A stretch of DNA of 64,000 nt from an uncultured Rhodospirillaceae bacterium (GTDB lineage: Bacteria > Pseudomonadota > Alphaproteobacteria > MPNO01 > UBA2964). Shown one piece after another: positions 21,402-51,355 of the stretch. The notes beneath the pieces were generated by a model. It did no database searches, was not told the DNA's origin, and saw only the letters and a program-made list of their open reading frames with translations. The DNA is taken from the NCBI GenBank assembly GCA_964499275.1, contig CAZCKO010000004.1:13418-77417 (forward strand), written 5' to 3'. A program made the translations under genes and the position numbers. Every line of letters begins with the position of its first letter. Positions within the stretch are counted from its first letter, which is position 1.

Positions 21402-22895
21402 ATGGATGGCTCGCAGGCTGCAGGTCTTATTCACAAGGTCACATTCGGTGACCTTAGGGAATATATTGAGGAAGTTGAAAAGCTTGGAGAGTTGAGACGT
21501 GTTGAAGGCGCTACCTGGGAAGAGGATATCGGCCTTGCTGCGGAACTGCTTCTTCACAGTGAAACAGCACCCTGTGCACTCTTTGATGAAATACCGGGTT
21601 ATCCCAAGGGCCATCGGGTCTTCACTAATTTTTTTGGCGGACGCCGCCAAAATATTACCCTTGGTTTTCCTCCAAACCTTTCAAAATTTGAATTAAGCGT
21701 AGCCTTCAATAAGGCTTATCAATCGATTGTGCAAAATCCAATCCCTTATGAGACCGTAGAAACTGGGCCGGTAATGGAAAACATAATGGAAGGGGACGAT
21801 GTAGACGTGTTATCTTTCCCGACTCCCCTTTGGCATGAAGGGGACGGTGGCAGATATATTGGCACTGGATCCTTTAATGTTACCCGTGACCCTGAAGAAG
21901 ATTGGGTGAATGTTGGGACCTATCGCGTAATGGTTCATGATAAAAAAACCGTAGGATTCTATATTTCGCCTGGCAAGCATGGTCGGATTCACCGTCAAAA
22001 ATACATGTCAAAAAACCAACCCATGCCAGTTTGTGTTGTTGTTGGAATAGATCCGCTGAGTTTTCTTATGTCCTCTTCAGAAATTCCCTACGGAGTATGT
22101 GAATTTGACATAATGGGGGCGTATCGAGGCCGCCCTATTGAATGTGTAATTGGCAAGCACACTGGCCTGCCCTTCCCTGCAAATGCTGAGATTGTTCTCG
22201 AGGGGTTTTGCTATCCTGACAATCTTCACTCCGAGGGGCCTTTTGGAGAATGGACGGGTTACTATGGAAACCCCGAACATAATGGTCCGACTTTAGATAT
22301 TAAGGCAATTTATCATCGCAATAATCCAATAATGCTCGGTTGTCCGCCTCAGCGACCACCAGAAGAACAGTCCCGCTATCGTGCTGTAGTGAGGTCTGCT
22401 TTGTTGAAGGAACAAATTGAAGCAGTCGGCGTTCCAGATGTGCAGGTGGCGTGGTGCCATGAATGTGGTGGTGGGCGTATGTTTACAGCGGTATCTATTA
22501 AGCAACGGTATCCTGGCCATGCAACGCAGGCAGGTCAGATTGCCTCACAGTGCAGATTGGGGGCGTACGCTGGGAAGTTTGTAGTTGTGGTTGATGAAGA
22601 CATCGATGCATCCAATTTAGAGGATGTGATGTGGGCGCTTTGCTTCAGAGCAGATCCGGCCACTGATATTGATATAATACAAAGGGGTTGGTCGACCGGG
22701 CTGGATCCTTCTATTCACCCTGATCGTAAGGCGATTGGCGACACCACTAATAGCCGCGCTGTAATAAATGCTTGCAAACCCTTTCATTGGAAAGATAGAT
22801 ATCCGAAGGTCAATATGCCTGACCCCGAGACCTACGAGCGTGCCCAGCAAAGGTGGGGCTGGCTTCTAAACAGTAATGCACCCCCAGAAAAATAG
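21402..22895 (+). CDS. UbiD-family (prFMN-dependent) decarboxylase, paralog 1
   Basis: 497 aa with the UbiD-fold N-terminus ...WEEDIGLAAELL... and central ..GPFGEWTGYY... Clear paralog of 30673..32151. Confidence 0.8.
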   Translation: MDGSQAAGLIHKVTFGDLREYIEEVEKLGELRRVEGATWEEDIGLAAELLLHSETAPCALFDEIPGYPKGHRVFTNFFGGRRQNITLGFPPNLSKFELSVAFNKAYQSIVQNPIPYETVETGPVMENIMEGDDVDVLSFPTPLWHEGDGGRYIGTGSFNVTRDPEEDWVNVGTYRVMVHDKKTVGFYISPGKHGRIHRQKYMSKNQPMPVCVVVGIDPLSFLMSSSEIPYGVCEFDIMGAYRGRPIECVIGKHTGLPFPANAEIVLEGFCYPDNLHSEGPFGEWTGYYGNPEHNGPTLDIKAIYHRNNPIMLGCPPQRPPEEQSRYRAVVRSALLKEQIEAVGVPDVQVAWCHECGGGRMFTAVSIKQRYPGHATQAGQIASQCRLGAYAGKFVVVVDEDIDASNLEDVMWALCFRADPATDIDIIQRGWSTGLDPSIHPDRKAIGDTTNSRAVINACKPFHWKDRYPKVNMPDPETYERAQQRWGWLLNSNAPPEK

Positions 22896-23943: not shown

Positions 23944-25263
23944 TTAAGACATCATAAGGGGATTGATAATAGATAAAATTACAGCGCAAAAAGTGCCGCC
24001 TACGAATACATAAATGAAATTACTCCAACTGATCAGTCGCGTCATGGGAATTTCAAACATCGATGCTCCCGTTACAATAGAAAGACTACTAATTGATACA
24101 GCGGTACATAAACCCCAACCAGTTAATATTGCCTGCATAATGATAAGATCAGATACCCCGGTGGGAATACTTGTAAAGAGCACCAACAAGATGGTTCCCG
24201 AAACAATGGAGTGAATGGCCATGACGCCAGCAATATTCATGGCCATAATCAATATAAAGATAATCGCAGTGGCTGAAAGCTGGAGGCTCTGTAACCAATT
24301 TAATAGACCCATGTCTGGAAGAGCCTTTTCGAACACGCTACCGAGAACGGTGGCAAAAACTAAAATCGCGGTTTCCGGACCTATCCGTGGCAAACGTTGA
24401 ATAGTGGTTTTAAGAGCTGTGGGAATTGATCCGCCTGGCGAGAAAAAGACCGCTATCAGACATGGTATGGGTAAAGCCATAATTAGTGATTGCATTGTGG
24501 AAAATCCTGAAGCAATCGATGTGCCGATGACTAGCAGAGCAGCAATAGCTATAGGTGGGGCAATCGGGGCTAATGTCATGAGAGATTGCCATAAAGACTT
24601 AAGCCCTCCTTTGCGATCAAAACAGATAATAGATAGAACGATACAAAAAGAGGAAAGTGCCAGCCCCATTGATACGATCTGCCAGAGAGGCACCTTGGGC
24701 AAATATTGGCTGGCGATAGCCATTCCGACGACAAATGGAGACCACAAGGGTACCAGGGCCATACCCCGCATCGCTGCAATAAATACTTCGCGACGTTCAC
24801 TTTCCTTGGCGTTACGACCAAGTATTGGGGCCATAATTGCGAATACACTTACTTGCAGGATCGAGCCGATAAGAAAGCCACCAACGACTAATCCACTATC
24901 CCGTCTCTCTGGTTCAAGGGCGGTAAAGAGACTTCTGGCAGCAATAATTTCGGGCCGTTGCTCGGCTGTTGCTCTTAGGAGTAAAATGGTTGCTAGGAAG
25001 GTCGGAAAAATTATTGCGCGCCTTAAACCATCTTCGATTGCTCCCCACTGGTCATAAATTTGTGCCAATACCGCTGTTATTGTCACAAGAACAGAACACA
25101 GAATTTTCACGCTGCGGTTAGCTTGCGGTAAAGCACAAATGGTTGTGCACGCAAGGAGGCCGATTAATAAATCAAAGACATATGGTGTTGGAACGAGTAT
25201 TTGAATTAAGCCCAAGACCCAAAGGAGACCGAGTGTTATAAGGAGAATTCGGGTTAAAATCAA
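23944..25263 (-). CDS. Polytopic integral membrane protein of unknown function (putative permease)
   Basis: 439 aa with about 12 hydrophobic segments and no recognisable family motif. Co-oriented with and 8 nt upstream of an EamA gene. Confidence 0.5.
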   Translation of the reverse strand: MILTRILLITLGLLWVLGLIQILVPTPYVFDLLIGLLACTTICALPQANRSVKILCSVLVTITAVLAQIYDQWGAIEDGLRRAIIFPTFLATILLLRATAEQRPEIIAARSLFTALEPERRDSGLVVGGFLIGSILQVSVFAIMAPILGRNAKESERREVFIAAMRGMALVPLWSPFVVGMAIASQYLPKVPLWQIVSMGLALSSFCIVLSIICFDRKGGLKSLWQSLMTLAPIAPPIAIAALLVIGTSIASGFSTMQSLIMALPIPCLIAVFFSPGGSIPTALKTTIQRLPRIGPETAILVFATVLGSVFEKALPDMGLLNWLQSLQLSATAIIFILIMAMNIAGVMAIHSIVSGTILLVLFTSIPTGVSDLIIMQAILTGWGLCTAVSISSLSIVTGASMFEIPMTRLISWSNFIYVFVGGTFCAVILSIINPLMMS

Positions 25264-25358: not shown

Positions 25359-26552
25359 TTATAGTTCAGTTTTCTTTATCGAGAACAATCTGACTAATGG
25401 CAATAACAAGATACCCATAAAAGCCAACCCCGTCATTGCAATGAAAGAAAATCCGCCAAAGTTTTCGTAAAGCCAGCCTGACCCAAGCATCGCAAAGGCC
25501 ATAGTAGTTCCTACGGCGAAACTGGAATACAGGCTTTGCGCGGTTGCAGCAAATTCCGCTGGGACAGATTTTGCGATATAATAAAGAGCGGCTAAATGGG
25601 TGGCACCGAATGTAAAAGCGTGAAGCCATTGAATGCAAATCAGGTAAGTAATGTCTGTTGTTATACCAAGGATCGACCAGCGTAGAACGCCAGAAAGTCC
25701 TCCAATTGTCAAAAATATTATAGGCCCTATGCGGTCGATATATTTACCGGCTATTGCAAACAAGATAATCTCCGCGACAACCCCTTCAGCCCAAAGACCA
25801 CCAATCGTCACCTTATCAAGACCATTGGCACGCCAATGCAATGTAGAAAATCCATAATATACAGCGTGGCTAGCCTGTATCAGGCTTGCAGACATCATAA
25901 AGATGATAAGCCGCCCATTTCCTATTATGTTTAAAAAGGGTGCCAAAAACTTGTCAGTGCCCGGTGTTTTGGTTCTCGGAATTAAATGACAGATGGCAAC
26001 TGTCAACACCAAAAGTCCTATAACAAGCCACAAAATATAATCTGCCTTTTTACCCTGTAGAAAATACCCTCCTCCGATAGCGGCAACGATGAAGGTTAGC
26101 GATCCCCAGAGTCTCACTCTTCCGTAATCAATAGTCCCCGCACGAACCTTCAGCATGGTTACAGCATCTGCCATTGGCATCATGGCAAAGAGTAGAATCG
26201 AGGAACACACGCTAATTATAAAAAGGCTCCAAAATCCATCTGAAATAAAGAATAAAATATGTGTAATTAGGGCCCCCCAACCAAGTAGAATAATCATTAA
26301 GTCCGGGCGCCCATGCCGATCGGCACTTTGGGCGAGGAGAGGATTTAGAATAGCTCGGCTCCACGTTCCCACCGCAAGGATAAGACCAATTTCTATTGGG
26401 GTTATGCCTTTAGACTCTAGCCAAATGGGCCAAAATGGCATCACTATACCGATTACCGCAAAAATTGCGCCATAAATTAAGGAAATTCTAATTGCCATTA
26501 TCTTCAAGTGCCTATGAGATTGTCGCTGTGCAATGACGCCAACGTGGGACAT
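25359..26552 (-). CDS. MFS transporter, HcaT-like (3-phenylpropionate permease family)
   Basis: FWPIWLESKGITPIEIGLILAVGTWSRAILNPLLAQSADRHGRP closely parallels the HcaT/PPP-family signature. The true start may be the internal Met at about 26498. Confidence 0.6.
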   Translation of the reverse strand: MSHVGVIAQRQSHRHLKIMAIRISLIYGAIFAVIGIVMPFWPIWLESKGITPIEIGLILAVGTWSRAILNPLLAQSADRHGRPDLMIILLGWGALITHILFFISDGFWSLFIISVCSSILLFAMMPMADAVTMLKVRAGTIDYGRVRLWGSLTFIVAAIGGGYFLQGKKADYILWLVIGLLVLTVAICHLIPRTKTPGTDKFLAPFLNIIGNGRLIIFMMSASLIQASHAVYYGFSTLHWRANGLDKVTIGGLWAEGVVAEIILFAIAGKYIDRIGPIIFLTIGGLSGVLRWSILGITTDITYLICIQWLHAFTFGATHLAALYYIAKSVPAEFAATAQSLYSSFAVGTTMAFAMLGSGWLYENFGGFSFIAMTGLAFMGILLLPLVRLFSIKKTEL

Positions 26553-26591
26553 AATTGTCTTAATGTAAAACTAGATTCGGGGAGACCTAAA

Positions 26592-28328
26592 TTGGCAAAA
26601 CAAAAGATTAAAGCTGATACTACAGCAGAGGCCTATCTTACGCTTTTAGCAGACCGGGGCGTAGATTATTTGTTTGGTAATGCGGGGACAGACTTTGCTT
26701 CTGTAATTGAAGCATTGTCCAAAGCCCAGTTAGGTGAAGCGAAAGCGCCTATTCCTGTCACGGTTCCGCATGAAAATGTAGCCGTAGCAATGGCACACGG
26801 ATATTTTCTGGCGACTGGCCGGCCACAAGCTGTAATGCTTCACGTGACTGTAGGAACTGCAAACGGTGTTTGCGGGATTATGAATGCGGCGAGAGAACGG
26901 ATACCCATGTTGTTCACTGCTGGGCGTACACCCCTTACCGAAGAGGGTTTACCTGGAGCAAGAAGTATCTTCATCCATTGGGCACAGGAATTATTCGATC
27001 AAGCAGGTATGGTTCGGGAATTGGTCAAATGGGATTACGAGCTGCGGAATTTGGAACAACTTGAAACAGTAGTTGATCGAGCCCTAACGATAGCGATGTC
27101 CGAACCCAGGGGACCCGTATATTTAACGCTCCCCCGGGAAATTCTGGCCGAGGTGCCCGGTGATTTTACTTATGACAGTCCGTCAAGTCGCAACCCTACG
27201 GTAGCAGGAATACCTAATCCCAATGCAATTGATCATGCAGCGGATATGCTTAGTAAGGCAAAAAATCCCCTTATAATTTCTTCATCGTTTGGACAGACTC
27301 CAGAAGACGTCGCCGCGCTTGAGGAATTAGCTGATCAGTTTGCTATCCCGGTAGTTTGTTATCGCCCACGCTATGTAAATTTGCCTACGAGCCATGCTAT
27401 GCATGCAGGATTTGAGCCAGGACCTAAGCTGGGAAGCGCGGATGTGATTCTTACATTGGAAGCCGATACTCCCTGGATTCCAAGCCTTCATAAAATAGGC
27501 CCAGATACCAAGGTTATTCAGGCTGGTGTTGATCCGCTATTTGCAAATTATCCTATTCGAGGGTTTCGAAGTGATTTAACCCTATCGGGTGATGCCGCAG
27601 CAATTGTTAAAGCACTATCAGATGCTATGTCTGCAGATCAAGATCGTATCGCTGTCACTCGTAAGGTTGTCGCTGAAGAAAAATTGGAATTACTAGACAC
27701 CCAGAAAGCACTGCTAGAACGCCAGTCCGTGGGTGGGCCAATGGAATACCCATGGGTTGCGCATTGTATTGGACAGGCCATGAACGCGGACGATGCTTTA
27801 GTAAGTGAATCACAGCTGCCTGTCGGATTTTTAGGATCGAGACCTCCTGGGACTGTATTCGGCACTAGCCCGGCTGGTGGATTGGGTTGGGGTAATGGGG
27901 CGGCACTTGGTCTGCAGCTAGCAGATCGTTCTCGAAGGATATTTAATGTAGCGGGGGATGGGTCCTACATGTTTGGTAATCCCACACCGGCACACTTTGT
28001 GGGTGCGGCGCTAGAACTGCCAATTTGTACTATAATTCTCAATAATCGCATGTGGGGCTCGGTACGAAAATCAACACTTGGATTGCATCCGGAAGGTGCA
28101 GCTTCTCGTATGAATCGTTCACCTTTGACCGCGCTTGAACCAAATCCGGAATTTGAAAAAATTGTTGAGGCTAATGGTGGCTATGGCGAACGAGTGGATA
28201 ATGCTGAGGATTTGCCGGGGGCATTAGAACGGGCACTCAAGGCTGTAGATGTTGAAAAACGCCAAGCAGTCTTAAATGTTCAAACGTCTTATGATGATGC
28301 GCAAGCATTGGCAGATGCGAGACGTTAA
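26592..28328 (+). CDS. Thiamine pyrophosphate-dependent enzyme (acetolactate synthase / benzoylformate decarboxylase / sulfoacetaldehyde acetyltransferase superfamily); probable TTG start
   Basis: N-terminal Pyr domain (..YLFGNAGTDFASVIEAL..), central domain and a C-terminal TPP-binding GDGS motif (..NVAGDGSYMFGNP..NN..). A GGAG RBS lies just upstream of the in-frame TTG at 26592. The ORF track start at 26508 would overlap the divergent gene. Confidence 0.75.
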   Translation: MAKQKIKADTTAEAYLTLLADRGVDYLFGNAGTDFASVIEALSKAQLGEAKAPIPVTVPHENVAVAMAHGYFLATGRPQAVMLHVTVGTANGVCGIMNAARERIPMLFTAGRTPLTEEGLPGARSIFIHWAQELFDQAGMVRELVKWDYELRNLEQLETVVDRALTIAMSEPRGPVYLTLPREILAEVPGDFTYDSPSSRNPTVAGIPNPNAIDHAADMLSKAKNPLIISSSFGQTPEDVAALEELADQFAIPVVCYRPRYVNLPTSHAMHAGFEPGPKLGSADVILTLEADTPWIPSLHKIGPDTKVIQAGVDPLFANYPIRGFRSDLTLSGDAAAIVKALSDAMSADQDRIAVTRKVVAEEKLELLDTQKALLERQSVGGPMEYPWVAHCIGQAMNADDALVSESQLPVGFLGSRPPGTVFGTSPAGGLGWGNGAALGLQLADRSRRIFNVAGDGSYMFGNPTPAHFVGAALELPICTIILNNRMWGSVRKSTLGLHPEGAASRMNRSPLTALEPNPEFEKIVEANGGYGERVDNAEDLPGALERALKAVDVEKRQAVLNVQTSYDDAQALADARR

Positions 28329-28331
28329 ATT

Positions 28332-29132
28332 TCAAGCATAGCCCTGAACCATTATGGCACGACTTTCAAATTGAATTGAGCCATCCTTCTTGAAGGGGAG
28401 GGTCTCTTTGAGTTTTTCATAAACGGCATTGCGATGCTCGTCAGACATTTTTTTATAAAAACGGCCCACATTTTGTGAATTTGTGGTAATGGGTTTCCAA
28501 TAATCGTCAAGGTCACGGAAGCATGTTGTGAAGGAAAGGGTTTTTTGCTGGACGTTATTCAGTCCGGACTCCTCGAAATAATTTTTTAAAGTGTTGGCTT
28601 CCGCGATCGGAGTGCCAGTCGTTGTGCTAGTGCTTTGGTCAACAGGCGTTGTATCTTCAACTGCAGACCAAAAATGACGGGTCGTATTCATATTTGAGGC
28701 CATATCCCAATCGTACAAGGCAACAATGCCGCCCACTCGCGTCACGCGTTTCATTTCACTGATAGCTTTTGCTTTATCTGTTACGAATTTGATCATGAGT
28801 CCTGATACCACCGCGTCAAAACTTAAATCTTCAAACGGTAGGTTTTGAGCATTACCCAGCTCGAATTGAATGTCGGTATGATGAGGGTGGTTTTTTGCAG
28901 CCTGGATCGAAGTTTCTAGGGGGTCTATTCCGATCATTGTCGATGGAGAATATTTTTCAGAAATTATTTGGGTCAATGTGCCTACCCCGCAACCTACATC
29001 TAGCCAGCTCAACCCTGTTTTAGTGTCAATATTTTTGAGAAATAGTGCTGCTACCTTTCGGCTCCAACGGCCCATAAAATAGTCATATTGAGAATAGGTG
29101 TCTGAATAGGTCATTTGTGGATATCTTCCCAT
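28332..29132 (-). CDS. Class I SAM-dependent methyltransferase
   Basis: Motif I LDVGCGVGTLT. 266 aa. Confidence 0.75.
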   Translation of the reverse strand: MGRYPQMTYSDTYSQYDYFMGRWSRKVAALFLKNIDTKTGLSWLDVGCGVGTLTQIISEKYSPSTMIGIDPLETSIQAAKNHPHHTDIQFELGNAQNLPFEDLSFDAVVSGLMIKFVTDKAKAISEMKRVTRVGGIVALYDWDMASNMNTTRHFWSAVEDTTPVDQSTSTTTGTPIAEANTLKNYFEESGLNNVQQKTLSFTTCFRDLDDYWKPITTNSQNVGRFYKKMSDEHRNAVYEKLKETLPFKKDGSIQFESRAIMVQGYA

Positions 29133-30664
29133 GCTTTCTTAGCCGCTTTGCGGTCAATTTTCCCTCGGTTGTTTTTGGGTATTTCTTTTACTAGTTCAAT
29201 ATATTTTGGGCGTTTTTTTTCAGGAAGGTTCTCGTTGCAGAAAAGCACCAACGCCGTCGCGGTTAGTTTTGAATTCGGTGAAATAACTACCCAACTGGCA
29301 AGATTTTCTCCATAGACAGGGTCATGAATCCCAAAGGTCACAACTTCAAGTACACCTGGTTGTTGCGAAATTAAGGAGTCTATTTCTAATGGTGAAATAT
29401 TTACTCCGCCGCGTATAATAACATCTTTTGCTCGCCCCGTAATTCGTATAAACCCCTCATCATCAAAAAACCCAAGATCACCGGTTTTAAGAGGTTTTCC
29501 TCTTAACGACTCCGTTTCTCCACCGGCATAGAGGTAAGCGTTAGCATGCTGAGCGCTGACAGACTCTATTTCGCCGACAATACCCGGTTCCAGCAAGTTG
29601 TTGTTGTCATCTCTTATCGAAATTTTCTGATACATTCCGGCGGTTCCAACACTCCCTATTTTCCGATTTCCGGGGGTGTTTGCAGCAATGATACCCCCTT
29701 CACTCATTCCGTAGAGTTGAACCAATTCCACACCATAGATTTTTTCAAACCGTCGATGGGCATCGGCCATCAATGGGGCGGTGCTACATGAAATAAAGCG
29801 AACATTTTTAAAGATTTCTTTGCCGTTTTTAATAGGCTGTTCCAGTAACATATTTACAACTGTTGGAACGGCAACAATTATGGTGGGGCTATATGTTTCA
29901 ATCCAGTTTACGAAACGCGAATATGAAAAATTTTTTGCAAATAGTAGCGTTGCGCCTGCCAAAATAGTCGGGTTTAACGAAATCATGTGGGCTGATGCCC
30001 AGGTTATGGAACGAAACTCTAAAATTCGATCGTTGTTATTAAGTGACCAACGCTCTATTTGGTGTTGGGCAATAGCTTGATAGTTACCAAAGCTATGGAT
30101 AACTCCTTTTGGTTGGGCCGATGTCCCCGATGTGAAACAGATAACACAGTGGTCATTTGGGGTATTTTTAAGATGATATAAGTTTTTGCTATGGAGCTTT
30201 GATAATCTGGTAAAAAGGTCGGTATCGCGTCTTCTATCTTCGAAGAAAAATTTTTGTCTATTTGTTTTGGGTTCAATAATCAGGCTCCCAAACCCTCGCT
30301 CAATAAAAATAAGCTTTGGTGATATACGGTCAACCATTTCGATTAAGTGATTATAATTTACGTCGGTATTGATGGTGCAGTAGGTGGATCCAAAAGATTG
30401 TATTGCGTAATACAGGATAAGATGCTCTGTGGTGCTCTCTCCAACTACTAGGATCCTGTCATTTTTCTGTATTCCAAGGTTCCGTAGAAATTGAGCGATA
30501 CGGACACTCCAGTCCCAGAGTTCTTGCCAGGTAATAGAGTCCCCATTTTCTATTGAAACCAGGGCATCGGATGCTGGACTATTAACGACATTGCGCTCTA
30601 ATTGTTCCGAAATGGATAAGTAATTATCAGGTAAAAGATCTGTTGGCGCGGTCAAAACAACCAT
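29111..30664 (-). CDS. AMP-dependent synthetase/ligase (acyl/aryl-CoA ligase family)
   Basis: AMP-binding motif (..FTSGTSAQPKGV..). Conserved YGMSEGG and GDLGFFDDEGFIRITGRAKD segments. 517 aa. Confidence 0.85.
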   Translation of the reverse strand: MVVLTAPTDLLPDNYLSISEQLERNVVNSPASDALVSIENGDSITWQELWDWSVRIAQFLRNLGIQKNDRILVVGESTTEHLILYYAIQSFGSTYCTINTDVNYNHLIEMVDRISPKLIFIERGFGSLIIEPKTNRQKFFFEDRRRDTDLFTRLSKLHSKNLYHLKNTPNDHCVICFTSGTSAQPKGVIHSFGNYQAIAQHQIERWSLNNNDRILEFRSITWASAHMISLNPTILAGATLLFAKNFSYSRFVNWIETYSPTIIVAVPTVVNMLLEQPIKNGKEIFKNVRFISCSTAPLMADAHRRFEKIYGVELVQLYGMSEGGIIAANTPGNRKIGSVGTAGMYQKISIRDDNNNLLEPGIVGEIESVSAQHANAYLYAGGETESLRGKPLKTGDLGFFDDEGFIRITGRAKDVIIRGGVNISPLEIDSLISQQPGVLEVVTFGIHDPVYGENLASWVVISPNSKLTATALVLFCNENLPEKKRPKYIELVKEIPKNNRGKIDRKAAKKAWEDIHK

Positions 30665-30672
30665 CCGGATTT

Positions 30673-32151
30673 TTACCGCCCCTTCATCAGGTGGCCAAAC
30701 CTTTCCTCTGCCATTCGAGCTACTTCTGGACTTGGCGCATTAGACATTGGAAATTGATCTTGCCAATCAAATGGCCGACATGCATCGATAATAGCGACAG
30801 AATGAGTCATGTCACCGACTGCACGCTGTTGCGGAGTTAACATTGGATCTGCAGGAGAGTCCCATGCTCCTGTGATAAAGTCGATAGACCGTTTGGGGTC
30901 TGTTCTCACCATCATCGCCCAAATTAACTGATCAAGACGTGAGACGTCTATGTCTTCATCTGTGACGATAACATACTTTGAAGCATAGGCGGCAGCCCTG
31001 CATTGTGCCGCAATTTGACCTGCCTGGCGTGAATGTCCAGGATAGCGCTGTTTTATTGATACCCCATGTAACATTCGCGAGCCACCCGTTTCATGACACC
31101 AAACCTGCTGAATGTCGGGGACACCCGCGTCGATGATATTTTGTTTTAGCATTGCCGATCTCATAACGGCTCGGTATCGGGCAAGCTCATCGGGCCCTTG
31201 ACCCATTGGAGGTACGCCTAAAAGAATGGGGTCATTCCGGTGATATATTGCCTCTATTCGAAGTACTGTTCTGGGTTCTTTACCCCCAGCATAATGTCCT
31301 GTCCATTCGCCGAATGGGCCCTCTATCATGGTCTCATTTGGATCTACATAACCCTCCAATACGATCTCGGCATTGGCAGGAAAAGGCAGCCCCGTGACCT
31401 TACCCTCGACGAGCTGCATGGCTTTCCCCCTTAGGCCGCCAACGTAGTCTAACTCGAAGTCACCGTAAGGTGTCTCTGTTCCGCCGAAGTAAAAGGAAAG
31501 CGGGTCCCCACCGAGAACCATGCATACCGGCATTTTTGTTCCAGCCACCTTATATTTTTCACGATGAATGTAACCATGGTGTCCACGGGCTGTCAGGAAA
31601 CCTACTTCCTTTGGCCCGTGGACCTGAGCGCGATAGGCGCCCGCATTCAACCAACCTTCTTCAGGGTCTCTTGTCACGCTGTAGGTGCCAGTGCCGATAT
31701 AGCGACCTCCATCATTTTCATGCCAAATCGGAGCAGGGAATTTGGTTACGTCGATGTCATCGCCGGTCAGGATATTTTCAAATACTGGCCCATCGTCAAT
31801 AATTTCATGTTTAATCACTTTTTGATCTTCTAAAAAGTTCTCGCGATAGGCATTGGATAATTCCCACTTTGTTAAATGGTCGGGAAAGCCAAGCGTCATG
31901 TTACGACGAGTGCCAGCAAACATATTCATGAGTAAGCGGAAGCCCTTCGGACAACCCTCTACGTCTTCGAATACAACGCAAGGACCATTTTCTTCTCGTA
32001 AAACAGCTTCTGCTGCGAGGCCAATATCTTCGTGCCAGTTTGCGCCCTTCACGTATTCGACCTCTCCGAGGCGGTCCGCTAGAACTAACCACTCTCGTAA
32101 ATCTTCGTAGGCAATTTGGCCCGCATAATTGCTGCCTGACACTGTACTCAT
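30673..32151 (-). CDS. UbiD-family decarboxylase, paralog 2
   Basis: Homologous along its length to paralog 1 (WHEDIGLAAEAVL, GPFGEWTGHY). A GGAGGAAA RBS precedes the ATG at 32151; the upstream extension to 32235 is unlikely. Confidence 0.8.
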   Translation of the reverse strand: MSTVSGSNYAGQIAYEDLREWLVLADRLGEVEYVKGANWHEDIGLAAEAVLREENGPCVVFEDVEGCPKGFRLLMNMFAGTRRNMTLGFPDHLTKWELSNAYRENFLEDQKVIKHEIIDDGPVFENILTGDDIDVTKFPAPIWHENDGGRYIGTGTYSVTRDPEEGWLNAGAYRAQVHGPKEVGFLTARGHHGYIHREKYKVAGTKMPVCMVLGGDPLSFYFGGTETPYGDFELDYVGGLRGKAMQLVEGKVTGLPFPANAEIVLEGYVDPNETMIEGPFGEWTGHYAGGKEPRTVLRIEAIYHRNDPILLGVPPMGQGPDELARYRAVMRSAMLKQNIIDAGVPDIQQVWCHETGGSRMLHGVSIKQRYPGHSRQAGQIAAQCRAAAYASKYVIVTDEDIDVSRLDQLIWAMMVRTDPKRSIDFITGAWDSPADPMLTPQQRAVGDMTHSVAIIDACRPFDWQDQFPMSNAPSPEVARMAEERFGHLMKGR

Positions 32152-32369
32152 TGATTTCCTCCGCATTTCTGTTGAAAGGACTTTTACACGGTCAGGGCAA
32201 CGGAGCAAGCGGGCGTCCCTTGGTTTTGTATTCATTTGGATTTGACAAATTTAGGTCCATTTATCACCCTAATAATATGAAGTGCCTGACAGCCTAGGTC
32301 TAAATTATTATTTGAATTAACCTATTCTAATGTAGTTAAAATTTAACTCCGCGATTGGGAGGACACGGA

Positions 32370-33335
32370 ATGATTATCTATTCAGAACCTATGACAACGA
32401 GTGACCTTCCTGTAATTGATATTGGGCCCAGCTTCGCTGAGGATAAGATAGCCAGTGAAATAATTTCTAAGGAGATTGGCAAAGCATGCCAAGATACTGG
32501 TTTTTTTTATATTACAAATCACGGGGTTGATCAGGCTTTAATTGATGGAGCATTCAAAGCGACGAGCCGATTTTTTGATCAACCAGAAATTTGGAAAAAA
32601 AGATGGAATAAGCGAGGTTATTCTAACGGGTATGAACCGCCGGAAACACAAAGGCTTGATAATGAATCCCCGGGAGACATAAAAGAATCCTTTAACTTTA
32701 CAATGGGAAATATTCCGGGGACTGTCGGTTACAAAGAAAATATTTGGCCGGATAATTTTCCGGGATTTCGAGATCAATTGGAATCTTATAAAAAAGCGGT
32801 ATGGAAGGTAGGGCTTCAGGTGTCTCGTCTTATTTCTTTGTCACTGGGAATGCCGTTTGATTATTTTGATCCAACATTTTCGCAGCAAAAGTCACCGCTT
32901 CGCATCCTACGGTATCCTCCTCATCCTGAAGATACCGAATACAATCAATTGGGTTGTGGTGCTCATACCGACTGGGGATGGATAACCCTTTTGTTGCAAG
33001 ATACCGCGGGGGGCCTTGAAGTTGAAACAGCTTCGGGTGAGTGGGTTCGCGTTGAGCCAATTCCCGGCACATTTGTTGTAAATTTGGGAGATATAATGTT
33101 GCGTTGGACAAATTCCAAATACCACTCGAGCTTACACCGAGTGATGAATAATAATTCTGGGAGAAATCGTCATTCCATCGTTTTGTTTTTTAACCACGCG
33201 CATGATACCCATGTTGAGTGTCTTCCTAGTTGTCTCTCCGTCGGCGAAACACCAATCTTTTTGCCATGCACTGCTGGTGAGCATTCAACTCAACGCTATA
33301 AAGAATCGAGATCTAATTTAGGAATGACGAGTTGA
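32370..33335 (+). CDS. 2-oxoglutarate/Fe(II)-dependent oxygenase (isopenicillin N synthase-like family)
   Basis: N-terminal DIOX_N-like region (LPVIDIG...). 2OG-FeII_Oxy core with HxD...H (..CGAHTDWGWITLL.., ..SSLHRV..). GGGAGGA RBS before the ATG at 32370. Confidence 0.75.
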   Translation: MIIYSEPMTTSDLPVIDIGPSFAEDKIASEIISKEIGKACQDTGFFYITNHGVDQALIDGAFKATSRFFDQPEIWKKRWNKRGYSNGYEPPETQRLDNESPGDIKESFNFTMGNIPGTVGYKENIWPDNFPGFRDQLESYKKAVWKVGLQVSRLISLSLGMPFDYFDPTFSQQKSPLRILRYPPHPEDTEYNQLGCGAHTDWGWITLLLQDTAGGLEVETASGEWVRVEPIPGTFVVNLGDIMLRWTNSKYHSSLHRVMNNNSGRNRHSIVLFFNHAHDTHVECLPSCLSVGETPIFLPCTAGEHSTQRYKESRSNLGMTS

Positions 33336-33432: not shown

Positions 33433-34977
33433 ATGTTAGACGGTTCTGATAATTCTACGTCATTAAAATTTGATGCTGAATATGATGTAATAGTTGTTGG
33501 CTATGGATATTCCGGTGGGATAGCTGCAATTGAAGCCTTTGATGCTGGCGCAAAAGTTTTGTTGCTTGATAAGATGGCCAATCCCGGGGGTATTTCCGTC
33601 TGTTCGTATGGAGCGATGCGCTCTGCTCATGATGCAAATGAAGCCTTTAAATATCTCGAAGCCACTAACGGTGGTCGTACGCCTTCATCAGTGAACCGAG
33701 CATTGGCGGATGGCATGGCACAAATAGAACGGTATATGAGAAAGTTAGCGGAGGTTAATGGTGCTGTTGTTAACCCCCGAGAAAAAGTTGCCAACTATCC
33801 TTTTGAAGGTTACGACACATTCTATCAAACATTGATTGAAGAAATACCGAATTTTGATCCAGCAACTTACTATCCGCATGTTCGAGGTGCTCCCGGTGGA
33901 GCAAGGGTATTTAAGACGCTTGAAGACAATGTAGCCCAACGTGATATCGATATTTGGCTTGAATCACCCGTTCAAAGGTTAGTTTATAAAACCGATGGAA
34001 CGAAGGAAATACAAGGTGCGGTAGTAGAGACAAAAAATGGCGTTTGTAAGGTAAAAGCGGGTAAAGCGGTGATATTGGCATGCGGTGGTTTTGAAGCAAA
34101 TGAGGAAATGAAACGGCAATATTGGCAGATGAAGCCAGTCCTCGCTGCAACTACTAATTCGAATACCGGGGATGGTATTCGAATGTCGCAGGAGTTGGGC
34201 GCTAAACTTTGGCACATGTGGCACTATCATGGTTCCTATGGTTTTGATCACCCAGAATACCCCTATGCTATTAGGATGAAACGCTTACCCGATTGGATTC
34301 CTGGTCGTGAAGCGACGGCGGTCGTACAAATGACGTGGATTGTCGTAGATAAATTTGGCAAACGCTATATGAATGAAAATCCACCCTACACTCAGGATAC
34401 TTCGCACAGACCAATGGAATACTACGATACTGTGACACAGGATTTTCCCCGGATTCCTTCATATGTAATTTTTGATGAAGTAGGTCGGCGCCGTTATCGG
34501 GTAGGCGCTCCAACAAGAAATGATCCGGATGCCCATTACGATTGGAGCGATGACAATATTCAGGAAATCGAGTCCGGGTTAATCCGTAAAGCTGATTCAA
34601 TATCAGAACTGGCAGAATTGATAGATATGGTTCCTGCGGAGCTTGAATCTACTCTTGCGCGGTGGAACGAAGTTTGTGCAACTAAGGATGATGTTGATTT
34701 CGGCCGTCCATCAGGGACTATGATGAAAATTCAGCGACCGCCATTTTATGCAGGGCAGGTTTGGCCTGTTGTTTCAAATACCCAGGGTGGCCCGGAACAT
34801 GATGCACAACAGCGTATCATTGATGTAGAAGACAACCCAATACCCAGACTTTATGCGGCGGGTGAGTTGGGTAGTGGTTGGGGCCATTTATACATGTCTG
34901 GTGGCAATCTCGCCGAATGCCTTGTGACAGGCCAAATTGCTGGCAAACAGGCTGCTGCATTAGATGCTTGGAGTTAG
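33433..34977 (+). CDS. FAD-dependent oxidoreductase (fumarate reductase/succinate dehydrogenase flavoprotein-like, KstD-like)
   Basis: N-terminal FAD dinucleotide-binding motif DVIVVGYGYSGGIAAIEAFDAGAKVLLLDK. C-terminal FAD_binding_2-like region. 514 aa. Confidence 0.75.
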   Translation: MLDGSDNSTSLKFDAEYDVIVVGYGYSGGIAAIEAFDAGAKVLLLDKMANPGGISVCSYGAMRSAHDANEAFKYLEATNGGRTPSSVNRALADGMAQIERYMRKLAEVNGAVVNPREKVANYPFEGYDTFYQTLIEEIPNFDPATYYPHVRGAPGGARVFKTLEDNVAQRDIDIWLESPVQRLVYKTDGTKEIQGAVVETKNGVCKVKAGKAVILACGGFEANEEMKRQYWQMKPVLAATTNSNTGDGIRMSQELGAKLWHMWHYHGSYGFDHPEYPYAIRMKRLPDWIPGREATAVVQMTWIVVDKFGKRYMNENPPYTQDTSHRPMEYYDTVTQDFPRIPSYVIFDEVGRRRYRVGAPTRNDPDAHYDWSDDNIQEIESGLIRKADSISELAELIDMVPAELESTLARWNEVCATKDDVDFGRPSGTMMKIQRPPFYAGQVWPVVSNTQGGPEHDAQQRIIDVEDNPIPRLYAAGELGSGWGHLYMSGGNLAECLVTGQIAGKQAAALDAWS

Positions 34978-35008: not shown

Positions 35009-35512
35009 TTATCCGTACCAATATAAGAATATGCCTGGATATAACTCGTACTGTAGTACTAATTCGAACAGTATATAAACGAAAACTAACGTCCCGATAG
35101 CAAGATATCCGCTTTCGCGAATAGAGTATCCGCCCCGATATTTCATCCAGCAATAAACGAATATTGGGGTACAGGGTAAAAATCCTACCAAATAAATACT
35201 TAAAACGAGAGTACCCATCCATGCGAAGATCTTCAGTTCTTGCCCTACGGTGCGGACAGTCTTATCTGCATCTTCGTCCACCTCCTCTGGGGTTTTAGCA
35301 GAAAAGATAACGGAGATTTTTTCCCCCACTTTGCTGTCAGTAAGCGCTATCAAATCTAAAATCAGTAAGGGTAACGCAATGTAACCTACCAAAAGAGGAA
35401 ACATCCGATCAGTGATCTTGTATTGATAACTGGTTACGATAAATAAAACCACTACAGCCAAGGTTATTAAAATATAATAGGCAGAAGCACGTCGATGGCT
35501 TGGAATTCTCAT
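35009..35512 (-). CDS. tctB: Tripartite tricarboxylate transporter TctB-family small membrane subunit
   Basis: 167 aa, 4-TM protein immediately downstream of tctA with a 4-bp overlap. Confidence 0.55.
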   Translation of the reverse strand: MRIPSHRRASAYYILITLAVVVLFIVTSYQYKITDRMFPLLVGYIALPLLILDLIALTDSKVGEKISVIFSAKTPEEVDEDADKTVRTVGQELKIFAWMGTLVLSIYLVGFLPCTPIFVYCWMKYRGGYSIRESGYLAIGTLVFVYILFELVLQYELYPGIFLYWYG

Positions 35513-37020
35513 TGTGAGTTCTCCTCTTTTGCTATCCGTCGTTCCTTCATCTTGCGCTTTAAGGTTGGAAAGCCCAGGCTAAGAATGGTCAAAATCATTA
35601 AAAATACCGAGAGCCATCTGGTATAAAAAATCGACCATTGGTCATCAGAAATCAGCATTGATTGATGAAAACTCAATTCAGTAATACTTCCCAAAACTAT
35701 CGCTATGGTAAAAGTCACTCTTGGATAGTTAAAGCGGATCATAAAGTAACCAATAAAGGCAAATATAAAGGCTATAACGACGTCACCTATTTCTGTGTTC
35801 AATGCGAAGGCTCCGACAAAGGCGATAATCGTTACCGTTGGTATTAGCATATGCACACTGATTCGAGTTAATAACACCATGTATTTTGCTAGACAGAGGA
35901 CTACCAGAGTTGCAAATACAGCAGAAGCTGTTAGGGCAACTACTAACGTAAAGACCAGGTCTTGATGATCCTCAAGAAGTTTTTGTCCCGGTTCAATACC
36001 GTGCAAAATCAGGACACCTAGGAATACCGCTGTTTCAGCACTACCGGGAATTCCAAAGGCAAGGGTGGGTATCAGAGACCCTCCATCTTTAGCATTATTA
36101 GCTGACTCGGGTGCAATGACGCCCTTTATGTTGCCTTTACCATATTCAATGTCAGGAGTCGGGTCACGTTGTGCTTGAGTTGAATAGCTTAAGAAGGCGG
36201 CAACGGTGCCTCCAACCCCGGGAACTGCCCCGATAAAGGTTCCATAACCTGAGCCTATTAACGTAGTAGACCAATTCTTAAAGACTGATTTTATACCGTC
36301 AGAAATCCGGCTGATTTTAACATCAGAAGTATCCTCTGAAATCGATCCTCCCTTAACTGCAAGGTTGATCATTTCGGAAATCGCGAATAATCCAATAAGA
36401 GCGGGCACCAGTTTTATGCCGTCTTCCAGAAGCGGAATACCAAAATCATACCTTACGGTGCTCGTAACGTCGTAATAGCCAACGAACCCAACCATTAATC
36501 CGACAATTGCAGTTATAAGACCCTGAAGTAGTCGGTCACCTGAAGAAACCGCGATTGCACAAAGGCCAAAAATTGCAAGCATAAAAAATTCTGGAGGGGT
36601 GAAAAGAAGCACAATGGCTTTCATAATCGGGATGACAGCAACTAAAGAAATAACCCCAATTACGCCACCGAGTGCGGATGCTGTAGCGCCTGCTCCGATT
36701 GCCATACCGGCTTTTCCCTGTTGTGCCAGCGGGTAACCATCAAATGTGGTTGCAGCATTTGGGGCAATGCCCGGTGTATTGAGTAGTATTGCGCTTACGG
36801 AGCCCCCCGTTGAGGTCGCTGCCATGACACCACCCATTAAAATTATAGCCTGCCACGGCTCCATACCAAAAGTTAGAGGGATAAGAAGCGCAACGGCGGT
36901 TGTTCCCCCAAGACCTGGAATTGCACCAAATAGTAATCCGACAGCTGAGCCTGCTGCTAATAACAGTAGCGAATGTGGTGTACTAAGATTAACAATGCCT
37001 TCAATTAATGCTTCAAACAC
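35509..37020 (-). CDS. tctA: Tripartite tricarboxylate transporter TctA-family large permease (GTG start)
   Basis: N-terminus MFEALIEGIVNL...GAIPGLGGTTAVALLIPLTFGM is typical of TctA. 503 aa. Confidence 0.85.
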   Translation of the reverse strand: MFEALIEGIVNLSTPHSLLLLAAGSAVGLLFGAIPGLGGTTAVALLIPLTFGMEPWQAIILMGGVMAATSTGGSVSAILLNTPGIAPNAATTFDGYPLAQQGKAGMAIGAGATASALGGVIGVISLVAVIPIMKAIVLLFTPPEFFMLAIFGLCAIAVSSGDRLLQGLITAIVGLMVGFVGYYDVTSTVRYDFGIPLLEDGIKLVPALIGLFAISEMINLAVKGGSISEDTSDVKISRISDGIKSVFKNWSTTLIGSGYGTFIGAVPGVGGTVAAFLSYSTQAQRDPTPDIEYGKGNIKGVIAPESANNAKDGGSLIPTLAFGIPGSAETAVFLGVLILHGIEPGQKLLEDHQDLVFTLVVALTASAVFATLVVLCLAKYMVLLTRISVHMLIPTVTIIAFVGAFALNTEIGDVVIAFIFAFIGYFMIRFNYPRVTFTIAIVLGSITELSFHQSMLISDDQWSIFYTRWLSVFLMILTILSLGFPTLKRKMKERRIAKEENSQ

Positions 37021-37132
37021 GGACTTCCCTGCTCCCCGGTGATGTGTTTTAACTTTATCCTATTATTATAATTGTCTGGCGCCAGATATCACCCACGTTT
37101 CCAACGCGTTTTAAGTTGTTCAAAGGATGAAA

Positions 37133-37165
37133 GGAGGTGGCAGATACGTTAATACCCGCCACCTC
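37133..37165 (-). terminator. GC-rich stem-loop (8-bp stem GAGGUGGC/GCCACCUC, 16-nt loop) between tctC and tctA; possible intra-operon attenuator
   Basis: Inverted repeat ggaggtggc(37133-41)...gccacctc(37158-65) read directly from the sequence. On the - strand it lies just 3' of the tctC stop and is followed by CUUUCAUCCUUUG. Confidence 0.35.
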
Positions 37166-37172
37166 TAGAGGA

Positions 37173-38177
37173 TCAACGTGTTTTTTTGTTACTGGCAGCG
37201 AGAACGTCCTTATACTTAGAATAGTATGTGACCAACTCACCTACGAGTTTTGTTGCATCTGCAGAATTCAAAGGAGACACCGGACGTCCCACTTTTTTAC
37301 CCCAAGCAACAAATTCCGGATCAGTTACAGACTTGTATAGTGCGTTCGCTAACTTGTCTTTAATTGCCTTTGGTGTTCCGGGAGTAGTTCCTACGATGCG
37401 GTCGCCACCTAAAATTGCTAAGTCTTTGTGGCCCATTTCACCGGTCGTTGGGACACCATATTGTGACTTACCGTTCGTTATTTCTAGGATAGGCCTTAAG
37501 TCTTTAAATTTTTGACGCTTCTTCTTTTTACTGCTGATGTATTTTTGAAAAGTCCCCTTTGCAAGAATGGTCAGGTCACCATCTCCCCGGACCACTGCAA
37601 GAGCATATCGAGGAGCGGATTTGTATCCTGTTATGTATTTAGGCTTAAGTCCTAATGCATTCCATAAGATGGAGCTTGCAAGAAAACCCGTCGTACCAGG
37701 ACCTGTTATTGGAATTTTAATCTGGTTTTTGGATTTTAGTACATCCTGAATAGATTTATATTTACCTTTTTTACCACTGGTTACGATTAAGTAGCGGAAT
37801 TGTGCTACGCGGCCTAACCAGTCTATCTTGCGAACATCATAGCCTGCCTTTTCACCAATGATATTGGGCATGGCGTGTCCGGGCATGTTAAACATCAAAA
37901 TATGAGATCCGTCTGGCTTTCGCTTGGCAATGAAAGCTGCCGCTTTCTTACCTCGGCCTCCAGGCAGATTTTTTGCAATGATATTGACCTTACCACCGAG
38001 GTTCTTCTTTAGGTACGGTGCTAATTTTCTTGTAATGGTGTCAAAACCGCCACCCGGACCGTAGGCGATTAAAAATGTTATATTTTTTTTTGGAAAATCA
38101 ACCGCTTTTGAAGGTGTGCCTACTACCGTGGCCACAGCACTCAAGGCAACTACGCCCATAGCAAATTTACTAAACAT
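37173..38177 (-). CDS. tctC: Tripartite tricarboxylate transporter substrate-binding protein TctC (Bug family)
   Basis: Signal peptide MFSKFAMGVVALSAVATVVG followed by a Bug/TctC-type periplasmic binding fold. 334 aa. Confidence 0.8.
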   Translation of the reverse strand: MFSKFAMGVVALSAVATVVGTPSKAVDFPKKNITFLIAYGPGGGFDTITRKLAPYLKKNLGGKVNIIAKNLPGGRGKKAAAFIAKRKPDGSHILMFNMPGHAMPNIIGEKAGYDVRKIDWLGRVAQFRYLIVTSGKKGKYKSIQDVLKSKNQIKIPITGPGTTGFLASSILWNALGLKPKYITGYKSAPRYALAVVRGDGDLTILAKGTFQKYISSKKKKRQKFKDLRPILEITNGKSQYGVPTTGEMGHKDLAILGGDRIVGTTPGTPKAIKDKLANALYKSVTDPEFVAWGKKVGRPVSPLNSADATKLVGELVTYYSKYKDVLAASNKKTR

Positions 38178-38395
38178 AAAATACCTCCCTGATATTTCAT
38201 TTGCTCCTTTTATTATTTTTGGAGCATTTAATGTAACTAACGGTCTTTAGTCTAGACGAACTGAATTGTCCTGTTAACCCGGAAATGAATAAAATATATA
38301 GAATGTCAGAACACTTGGGCTCGTTTCACACTCCAAATGAGTGTTATCATTCAGTTAAAAGCTTTGTAAGCTACGTTGGTGTTAGTGAGATCATA

Positions 38396-39241
38396 ATGGC
38401 GAATGTAAAACCAAATCTGGATATTGTACCGACACACCCCGCAGTTGGGGCGAGGGTTACTGGTGTTGATTTGAGCAAACCCGTCAGCGAAGGCCTGGCT
38501 CAACAGATGCGTAATATTTTTATTCAATACTCCGTTCTATGTTTTCCAGATCAGGACATTACTAATGATCATCAGGCTGATTTTGCTAAAATTTTTGGTC
38601 ACGCTGATACAGCCGACCGGAGTACGGGAGATCCCGATAATAAGCAGTCCAAACGCGGGGTTATGTATGTAAGTAATATTCGGGAAGATGGTAAGTTAAT
38701 AGGCGTTCTTCCCGATGGAGAGATGCATTTCCATTCAGATGGTGCACACCGAGAGAAGCCTTACAGGGCCACCACGCTTTTTGCTTTGGAGGTACCCTCG
38801 ATTGGTGGTGAGACAAAGTTTTCTGCCATGGCGGCGGCATATGAGGCGTTAACAAAACCTCAGCGGTCTAGTCTGGAAAACCTGCAAGCGCGTCACGTTT
38901 TTAACTATAACAAAACTACTCGCGAAGAGATGCGTCGGGATAAAGATGTTTCATATGCCATCCACCCTCTGGTTAAAATTCATCCAGATTCAGGAAGGAA
39001 GTCACTTTATTTAAGCCGTTTAATGACAAGTGATATTATTGGTATGGCGACAGAAGAAAGTGAAAATTTATTAATCAAGCTATTTGCCCACTGTGAAAAA
39101 TCAGAATTTGTTTACGAGCACAAATGGGTTCCGGGCGATCTCGTGATTTGGGATAATCGCAGTGTCAACCATGCTAGAAATGATTTTCCTGGTGATCAGC
39201 GTCGATTACTTCGACGTTATACAATATCCGAACCGAACTAA
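38396..39241 (+). CDS. TauD/TfdA-family Fe(II)/2OG dioxygenase
   Basis: HxD motif (..MHFHSDGAH..) and C-terminal ..WDNRSVNHAR..RRL..RYTI.. typical of TauD/TfdA. The internal ATG at 38396 gives the family-typical length of about 281 aa. Confidence 0.75.
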   Translation: MANVKPNLDIVPTHPAVGARVTGVDLSKPVSEGLAQQMRNIFIQYSVLCFPDQDITNDHQADFAKIFGHADTADRSTGDPDNKQSKRGVMYVSNIREDGKLIGVLPDGEMHFHSDGAHREKPYRATTLFALEVPSIGGETKFSAMAAAYEALTKPQRSSLENLQARHVFNYNKTTREEMRRDKDVSYAIHPLVKIHPDSGRKSLYLSRLMTSDIIGMATEESENLLIKLFAHCEKSEFVYEHKWVPGDLVIWDNRSVNHARNDFPGDQRRLLRRYTISEPN

Positions 39242-39253
39242 TGAAATTTTTAG

Positions 39254-40096: not shown

Positions 40097-40123
40097 TGCG
40101 TCCTCCCCATTTAAGGGTTAGTT

Positions 40124-40897: not shown

Positions 40898-40983
40898 AAG
40901 CTGACCTTCAAGGTGTAATGTCTAAATCAAATAATAGCTAAAACCTAACACTGGTGGGTTATCCGCGAAACCCTCACAGAATT

Positions 40984-41841: not shown

Positions 41842-41869
41842 AATTAACTCCCTTTAACCGGTATAAATA

Positions 41870-44403: not shown

Positions 44404-44482
44404 CCGATTTAAGCTATTATGCGTAAGAAATACGAACGACCCCTAATGATATTATTAGTGTGAGTCATTATTGCCCAAATCT

Positions 44483-45409: not shown

Positions 45410-45413
45410 TGGT

Positions 45414-46532: not shown

Positions 46533-46552
46533 GACTCTTCTCCATTAAATTC

Positions 46553-46585
46553 AATTCATATCTCAATAGGTTTGAGATATGAATT
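46553..46585. promoter_or_regulatory. Perfect 14-bp inverted repeat AATTCATATCTCAA-N5-TTGAGATATGAATT, 20 bp upstream of the cupin gene start; candidate operator or 5'-UTR stem-loop
   Basis: Read directly from the sequence. It sits in the 255-bp intergenic region between UbiD paralog 3 and the cupin-DapA-like genes. Confidence 0.4.
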
Positions 46586-51336: not shown

Positions 51337-51355
51337 GAAAGATTCTTAACCTTGA

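Follow-up and report, generated by a model that had tools for sequence, protein, structure and literature searches.

A conserved UbiD-ligase gene pair, extended by a methyltransferase in one genus, and its possible role in aromatic polycarboxylate breakdown

Introduction

Enzymes of the UbiD family are wanted as reversible catalysts of (de)carboxylation, and few of them have known substrates. Here, we describe three genes on a 64,000-nucleotide (nt) stretch of DNA (the window) from an uncultured Rhodospirillaceae bacterium, positions 13,418-77,417 of the forward strand of contig CAZCKO010000004.1 (assembly GCA_964499275.1). The host's GTDB lineage is Bacteria; Pseudomonadota; Alphaproteobacteria; MPNO01; UBA2964. 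The genes encode a UbiD-family (de)carboxylase dependent on prenylated flavin mononucleotide (prFMN), an AMP-forming acid-coenzyme A (CoA) ligase and a class I S-adenosylmethionine (SAM)-dependent methyltransferase. An original prediction made from the DNA had taken them for a candidate CoA-thioester decarboxylation module resembling that of phthaloyl-CoA decarboxylase (Pcd). The coupling of UbiD to ligase proved to be conserved and the ligase keeps aromatic company, and this much of the prediction stands; the analogy to Pcd fails on phylogeny. We tentatively favour a different order of events, in which an aromatic or heteroaromatic polycarboxylate is decarboxylated as the free acid and the remaining carboxyl is then activated with CoA.

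The assembly of the window's genome (G000; C6, C21, C48, C50 and C85 below are its contigs) comprises 146 contigs that total 2.74 Mb, at 96.6% completeness. Its closest counterparts among public records are marine metagenome-assembled genomes labelled Rhodospirillaceae, Alphaproteobacteria or Pseudomonadota bacterium. Gene families were assigned by the profile cut-offs of Pfam and NCBIfam, and solved relatives by comparison with the PDB. Conservation was judged by tblastn of the window's proteins against fetched loci and by order-wide searches, and ligase trees were made with a quick IQ-TREE run and with a larger FastTree run.

The three genes and their layout

The listing of open reading frames (ORFs) gives three co-oriented minus-strand frames, at 30673-32235, 29111-30664 and 28332-29132. 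In the direction of transcription these encode the UbiD protein, the ligase and the methyltransferase, packed end to end, and each product carries Pfam domains above the cut-offs, just as had been predicted from the letters (Table 1).

The first frame is open to 32235, and use of that longer form is unlikely. The start assigned earlier, the ATG at 32151, is correct, because GGAGGA lies 7 nt upstream of it and because orthologues are 490-493 amino acids (aa) long; their alignment begins at residue 1. The spacing of the genes needed two adjustments. Between the UbiD stop and the ligase ATG there are 8 nt (30665-30672) rather than 9. The 22-nt overlap reported for ligase and methyltransferase is real for the longest methyltransferase ORF, which begins at ATG 29132 and would encode 266 aa; orthologues have 260 aa, which favours the start at ATG 29114, and the overlap with the ligase stop is then the 4-nt ATGA. 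With either start, the arrangement would imply that the methyltransferase is translationally coupled to the ligase.

The terminator scan found no terminator-like site between the three genes, and such sites were at background overall; 12 promoter-like sites turned up in the scan against 7.0 +/- 2.6 expected, no useful excess over background. A search of the 5' intergenic region for inverted repeats gave none. With co-orientation, minimal spacing, no internal terminator and a conserved order, the trio has the marks of an operon and is predicted to be one transcription unit; we infer co-transcription from these features. At its downstream end the unit is convergent with a gene for a thiamine pyrophosphate (TPP) enzyme, again as described before: the TPP gene ends at 28328, 3 nt from the methyltransferase stop.

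Table 1. Features of the UbiD-ligase-methyltransferase locus and its conserved surroundings (window positions)
Feature	Positions	Strand	Basis
PhdA-like UbiD-family prFMN-dependent (de)carboxylase ('UbiD paralog 2'), 492 aa	30673..32151	-	Pfam, PDB, ribosome-binding site
AMP-forming acid-CoA ligase (ANL superfamily), 517 aa, uncharacterised UbiD-associated clade	29111..30664	-	Pfam, motifs, trees
Class I SAM-dependent methyltransferase, 260 aa	28332..29114	-	Pfam, motif I, orthologue length
Intergenic region, presumed promoter region of the operon, common to the divergent oxygenase and FAD-enzyme genes	32152..32354		ORF map
TPP enzyme, convergent, conserved neighbour in the family	26508..28328	+	NF006203/PRK08327, 653 bits (cut-off 456)
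2-oxoglutarate (2OG)-Fe(II) oxygenase, divergent	32355-33335	+	Pfam; beside UbiD in most family genomes
FAD_binding_2 oxidoreductase, divergent	33433-34977	+	Pfam; beside UbiD in most family genomes
TctB-TctA-TctC tripartite tricarboxylate-type transporter	35009..38177	-	Pfam; synteny conserved in the family

The UbiD protein belongs with PhdA

The UbiD protein has the three-domain architecture of its family, with PF20695, PF01977 and PF20696 (UbiD_N, UbiD and UbiD_C) all above the Pfam cut-off; it passes no NCBIfam equivalog model. Among solved structures, PhdA (7PDA) comes closest, at 329 bits (E 3.6e-97, aligned residues 14-472), and the next solved UbiDs reach at most 164 bits. The match to HmfF (6H6V) is 130 bits only. 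Pcd itself (8PMK/8OZ5) gives 48 bits (E 8e-12), the lowest value of all solved UbiDs. The motifs NAGAYR (169-174, with N169 and R174) and EGPFGE (277-282, with E277 and E282) align with those of PhdA, and E233 is present as well; by their correspondence to Fdc1 numbering, these positions are the metal and prFMN ligands and the catalytic Glu-Arg-Glu network of the UbiD family, a network described in PMC5818171.

A FastTree tree of the 30 UbiD proteins of the genome places the protein within a PhdA-like group of about 11 genes. Three Pcd-type paralogues (on C6, C48 and C21) form a separate clade, far from that group. Given the 48-bit match to Pcd and the separate clade, the present UbiD lies outside the Pcd clade. 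The suggestion that it might prove on phylogeny to be a member of that clade thus failed, with 48 bits to Pcd against 329 to PhdA. Another UbiD gene of the window, paralog 1 (21402-22895), is likewise PhdA-like: it scores 376 bits against 7PDA and shares about 52% identity with paralog 2.

Conservation of the pair

How firmly are the three genes tied to one another? In the host's own genus, the order UbiD-ligase-methyltransferase with a convergent TPP gene occurs in all eight genomes examined. Across the family, the UbiD-ligase pair is present in 15 of the 19 genomes that have the UbiD orthologue; in other genera the methyltransferase is missing and a glyoxalase or YHYH gene stands in its place. 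In a second family of the order, ten genomes carry a UbiD gene (~60% identity) followed directly by the ligase (43-46%) in unrelated surroundings: a gene for an HpaB-type hydroxylase precedes the pair and a Band 7 gene comes after it. The evolutionary link between UbiD and ligase that had been supposed is therefore borne out in both families. A scan of metagenomes returned loci almost all from the same genus. Among database homologues of the UbiD protein, many at 70-73% identity bear the names Xanthobacteraceae or Stellaceae.

The UbiD gene also occurs on its own. A third family has the UbiD orthologue (64-66%) and no adjoining ligase. In four of the five genomes of one genus of the host's family (g2), UbiD is directly convergent with the TPP gene, and both ligase and methyltransferase are missing. 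These four genomes are 86-99% complete; UbiD is kept at 79-83% identity and the best ligase matches are at 34-39%, the level of paralogues. One side observation comes from a complete, single-contig genome of the host's own genus (G445:C1; L033:8499-10031), in which the ligase is broken into three frames amid about ten intact neighbour genes. It is probably a pseudogene, with assembly indels as a possible cause. Another concerns a UbiD homologue (67%) from a soil metagenome (L083:1295-6473), which is directly preceded by molybdenum-hydroxylase genes (FAD and 2Fe-2S subunits) and has no ligase nearby; the neighbouring hydroxylase hints at N-heteroaromatic acids as possible substrates of this UbiD orthogroup.

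Rates of evolution differ among the genes. Against the closest genome, the ratio of nonsynonymous to synonymous substitution (dN/dS) takes the values 0.04 (UbiD), 0.16 (ligase) and 0.19 (methyltransferase), all from a single genome pair, since dS is saturated for all further genomes. All three are under purifying selection, and hence are functional genes, with ligase and methyltransferase evolving about four times faster than UbiD. Within the genus, identity is 90-97% for UbiD and 55-86% for the ligase.

The ligase and its relatives

The ligase has AMP-binding and AMP-binding_C domains above the Pfam cut-off and the core motifs of the ANL superfamily (TSGTSAQPKG, YGMSE, TGD, GRAKD and PKNNRGK, corresponding to A3, A5, A7, A8 and the A10 lysine). 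Its best PDB matches are MatB and oxalyl-CoA synthetase at 170-174 bits; the solved relatives taken together, malonyl-CoA and oxalyl-CoA synthetases and FadD13, span 143-174 bits. No NCBIfam model is passed: the scores are 154.7 bits for the benzoate-CoA ligase family TIGR02262 (cut-off 375.25), 246 for malonyl-CoA synthase NF005702 (PRK07514; cut-off 558) and 300 for the 'long-chain' ligases of PRK06187 (cut-off 476), so that the protein is a member of none of these. The names carried by its homologues are generic only.

The trees are more informative. In the quick IQ-TREE run, the UbiD-adjacent ligases of the host's family and of the second family form one clade (SH-aLRT 98) that leaves out all 21 other ligases of the window's genome. 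Because the UbiD-adjacent ligases of both families group in this way, the pairing of UbiD and ligase is old and inherited. The sister group, with support of 100, consists of the ligases on C6, C48 and C21, which are partners of Pcd-type UbiDs and box genes. This company, Pcd-type UbiDs and boxBC flanked by the nearest relatives, makes the present ligase a probable aromatic-acid enzyme by association. The homology check proposed for the ligase is thus answered in two halves: the protein keeps aromatic company and is neither a fatty-acid nor an acetyl-CoA synthetase, and with 154.7 bits against 375 it falls outside the benzoate-CoA ligase family.

In the larger FastTree tree, ligases of a third family fall inside the same orthologue clade. 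Some of these genes lie directly 3' of a Pcd-like UbiD gene and 5' of four EamA genes, and others are beside EamA genes only. The pairing of one ligase clade with two very different UbiD clades keeps alive the idea that the ligase makes CoA esters for a decarboxylase, as weighed below.

The methyltransferase

The methyltransferase scores above the Pfam cut-offs for Methyltransf_11, 25 and 31 and has motif I as LDVGCGVG. No NCBIfam model is above its cut-off, and the scores against BioC (66.6; cut-off 185), UbiE (at most 64; cut-offs at least 216) and UbiG (43; cut-off 103) assign it to none of these families. Matches in the ESM Atlas are to generic methyltransferase clusters only. By its profile and its distribution, it is a generic class I enzyme that was added later, at the level of the genus. 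The proposal that it serves the O-methylation or demethylation of phenolics found no backing; the gene is confined to one genus, and nothing links it to phenolic O-methylation.

UbiD expansion and Pcd-type loci elsewhere in the genome

The genome that carries the operon has 30 UbiD-domain genes, those in the window being 21402-22895, 30673-32151 and 46788-48191, together with 22 AMP-ligase, 20 TPP-enzyme, 20 TctC and 32 EamA genes. There is a single UbiX-sized flavoprotein (G000:C85:2013-2504, 133 bits), on a contig separate from the operon; a second match to the Flavoprotein profile, in a 413-aa open frame, is taken to be CoaBC. In a first-look search, four of the order's five families had 23-49 UbiD candidates in each genome, three very incomplete assemblies excepted, and the fifth had 11-18. 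Literature searches turned up no report on UbiD expansion in this marine group.

A true Pcd orthologue exists in the same genome. It is a UbiD protein with 810 bits to Pcd (8PMK), encoded at G000:C6:29760-31349 in a locus (G000:C6:21961-31349) that runs from boxB-boxC through two AMP-ligase genes to the Pcd orthologue, with a TctC gene adjoining; the boxC and boxB products score 871 and 838 bits, both above cut-off. Judged by its gene content, this locus looks like a hard-wired aerobic route from phthaloyl-CoA to benzoyl-CoA and on into the Box pathway. A Pcd-like UbiD (C48:8557-10122; 277 bits to Pcd) is near another ligase gene (G000:C48:6075-10122). In another family of the order (L089:4477-7500 and L090:6004-8366), a Pcd-like UbiD gene is followed by an orthologue of the present ligase and then by four EamA carrier genes. 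As a separate observation, G000:C50:7-2497 holds a UbiD gene truncated at the edge of its contig and, 7 nt further on, the gene of a short AMP-ligase (465 aa) from a different clade, which gives the genome another, independent UbiD-ligase pair.

The order of decarboxylation and CoA activation

We consider the trio to be one putative transcription unit within a catabolic island that deals with carboxylic acids, aromatic or heteroaromatic, taken up from outside. The PhdA-like UbiD, carrying prFMN made by the single UbiX, would take one carboxyl off the free acid, and the ligase would then convert the remaining carboxyl to a CoA thioester for further breakdown. The net reaction would be aromatic polycarboxylate + ATP + CoA -> aryl-CoA + CO2 + AMP + pyrophosphate. 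The methyltransferase may be a recent, genus-specific addition that modifies a hydroxyl or carboxyl group of the ligase's substrate or product. We infer the substrate class, the order of the reactions and the role of the methyltransferase, like the co-transcription of the genes, from comparisons of genes and proteins. The logic is that of HmfF and HmfD, in which HmfF decarboxylates free furan-2,5-dicarboxylate and HmfD then makes furoyl-CoA (PMC8091172).

The alternative order yields the same net conversion, an aromatic polycarboxylate to an aryl-CoA with loss of CO2. Phthalate and isophthalate are handled in this way, with CoA activation first and decarboxylation second (PMC13040137; PMC9516798). 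Applied to the present genes, the ligase would make the mono-CoA thioester of an aromatic dicarboxylate, and the UbiD would then decarboxylate the CoA ester to aryl-CoA.

Which order do the data prefer? Several considerations lead us to the free acid. PhdA, the nearest relative of known function, has free polycyclic heteroaromatic acids as its substrates, and the UbiD lies outside the Pcd clade. Moreover, UbiD survives where the orthologous ligase is absent (the four g2 genomes and the soil contig) or broken (G445:C1), and within the genus it has changed far less than the ligase (90-97% identity against 55-86%). Were this ligase the necessary source of its substrate, the UbiD would not be expected to survive the loss of the ligase so easily, an argument that is suggestive and no proof. 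Our preference nevertheless falls somewhat short of even confidence, and several points count against it. A paralogous ligase could stand in where the orthologue is absent, and within this genome the ligase's nearest paralogues lie beside boxBC and Pcd-type UbiDs. The third-family ligase orthologues that follow a Pcd-like UbiD would suit a ligase that makes substrates for CoA-ester decarboxylases. Finally, none of the three proteins passes an equivalog model of NCBIfam.

Activation before decarboxylation strikes us as rather unlikely for this operon, even with a good deal in its favour. The ligase clade is sister to the C6 and C48 ligases that flank the Pcd orthologue (810 bits) and the Pcd-like UbiD (277 bits), beside boxB/boxC; in another family, orthologous ligases come immediately after a Pcd-like UbiD; and two families conserve the UbiD-ligase pair. 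The combination of an ATP-dependent ligase with a UbiD is, moreover, known logic from the degradation of phthalate and isophthalate by strict anaerobes (PMC13040137; PMC9516798). Set against this are the UbiD's own affinities, at the bottom of the range for Pcd, in a clade apart from the three Pcd-type paralogues and closest to an enzyme that takes free acids, and its retention at high conservation where the ligase orthologue is missing or broken. In addition, the characterised isophthalate ligase is of the PaaK type, a different subfamily (PMC9516798). With activation first, acyl-CoA decarboxylation would have arisen a second time, independently, inside the PhdA-like branch. That fuller scenario, in which a PhdA-branch UbiD independently turned into an acyl-CoA decarboxylase and one ligase clade came to serve both Pcd-type and PhdA-type UbiDs within an order-wide radiation to 26-49 UbiD genes per genome, we regard as doubtful.

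Perhaps the genes are merely adjacent, with the UbiD a stand-alone decarboxylase and the ligase and methyltransferase a mobile cassette that landed between UbiD and the TPP gene. Genus g2 lacks both genes and has UbiD directly convergent with the TPP gene; the two putative cassette genes evolve about four times faster than UbiD; and the ligase orthogroup is also found beside other partners, whether a Pcd-like UbiD or EamA carriers only. We find this improbable all the same, considering that members of the same two orthogroups, UbiD and ligase, stand side by side and in one orientation in two families whose surrounding genes differ, that the 8-nt gap is too short for a separate promoter, and that a UbiD-family gene of some kind almost always precedes the ligase.

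Least probable is the reverse direction, in which UbiD would carboxylate an aromatic compound and the ATP-dependent ligase would trap the acid as its CoA ester and so pull the equilibrium, a model proposed for the anaerobic activation of benzene, naphthalene and phenanthrene. UbiD enzymes are reversible, anaerobic arene degraders have UbiD-like carboxylase genes beside aryl-CoA ligase genes (reviewed in PMC12016498), and the gene order fits, but the host is an oxic-ocean heterotroph with BoxB and with oxygenases (2OG, TauD and PhyH) around the operon, no arene-carboxylase partner subunits are nearby, and the carboxylate importers (TctABC and a major facilitator superfamily, or MFS, carrier) point to acids as the substrates.

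Neighbouring genes in the window

The genes around the operon that are conserved in the family include, besides those in Table 1, an HcaT-like MFS carrier. In the PDB, the TPP enzyme matches benzoylformate decarboxylase and benzaldehyde lyase best (about 100 bits). Without naming a substrate, these conserved neighbours would fit the uptake and breakdown of aromatic carboxylates.

Several further genes deserve mention in their own right. Beside TctABC, at 38285-42748, are three dioxygenases of the TauD/TfdA family, a PhyH dioxygenase and an alpha/beta hydrolase. The third UbiD of the window (46788-48191, minus strand) is HmfF-like, with 236 bits to 6H6V; downstream on the same strand (43579-48191) come a cupin gene, a DHDPS-family gene and a second class I methyltransferase gene, so that this is another string that runs from a UbiD to a methyltransferase. 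A DmsABC-like molybdopterin oxidoreductase is encoded at 50389-55005, with a 965-aa catalytic subunit, a 4Fe-4S subunit and a DmsC-like anchor. Two ORFs, 23944-25263 (439 aa) and 42863-43582 (239 aa), have no Pfam match, and the 439-aa ORF is conserved beside the MFS carrier throughout the family.

Significance

Taken by itself, the operon is an ordinary-looking, uncharacterised member of a familiar type of module for aromatic-acid breakdown. Its value lies in being a conserved and defined UbiD-ligase couple from abundant marine bacteria, with relatives that have complete genomes, are possibly cultured and carry the same pair, among them members of the second family (L057-L061). The wider setting, 30 UbiDs and one UbiX together with 20 TctC, 22 ligase and 32 EamA genes in a 2.7-Mb genome, may also help to explain the breakdown of carboxyl-rich aromatic dissolved organic matter in the ocean. 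If the broader picture is true, the UbiD radiation lets Alphaproteobacteria of the oxic ocean strip carboxyls from the aromatic polycarboxylates of that pool.

Comparison with known systems

PhdA of Mycobacterium fortuitum is a prFMN-dependent phenazine-1-carboxylic acid decarboxylase, and the N-x-G-x-Y-R and E-G-P-F-G-E motifs are common to it and the present UbiD. The two proteins are clearly diverged all the same (329 bits over 459 aligned residues), and their partners differ: PhdA is described with the UbiX-like PhdB and the maturase PhdC, whereas the genes here are a CoA ligase and a methyltransferase, with UbiX on another contig. We know of no reported ligase partner of PhdA.

The Pcd systems of Thauera, Aromatoleum and Desulfosarcina (8PMK, 8OZ5) resemble the operon in linking the gene of a UbiD-family enzyme to that of an enzyme for CoA activation, there a phthalate CoA ligase or a CoA transferase. 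The UbiD here belongs to another clade, has no adjoining ubiX and comes from an aerobic, marine host. On the side of the ligase, MatB and oxalyl-CoA synthetase (4FUQ, 6QJZ, 5IE0) are the best solved relatives, full-length ANL enzymes that act on dicarboxylates; similarity to them is low, and the genomic company of the present ligase is aromatic rather than that of C2/C3 metabolism.

HmfF/HmfG and HmfD belong to the furfural/HMF pathway of Cupriavidus basilensis HMF14. The present UbiD is distant in sequence from HmfF, and homologues of hmfABC and hmfE, as well as ubiX, are missing beside the operon; the HmfF-like gene of the window is 46788-48191. In some Betaproteobacteria the hmf ligase and UbiD genes are themselves adjacent, in the order hmfABCDFGE (PMC8091172). 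What the two systems would share is the logic favoured here: a UbiD removes a carboxyl from a (hetero)aromatic dicarboxylic acid in its free form, and the resulting monoacid is activated by a CoA ligase.

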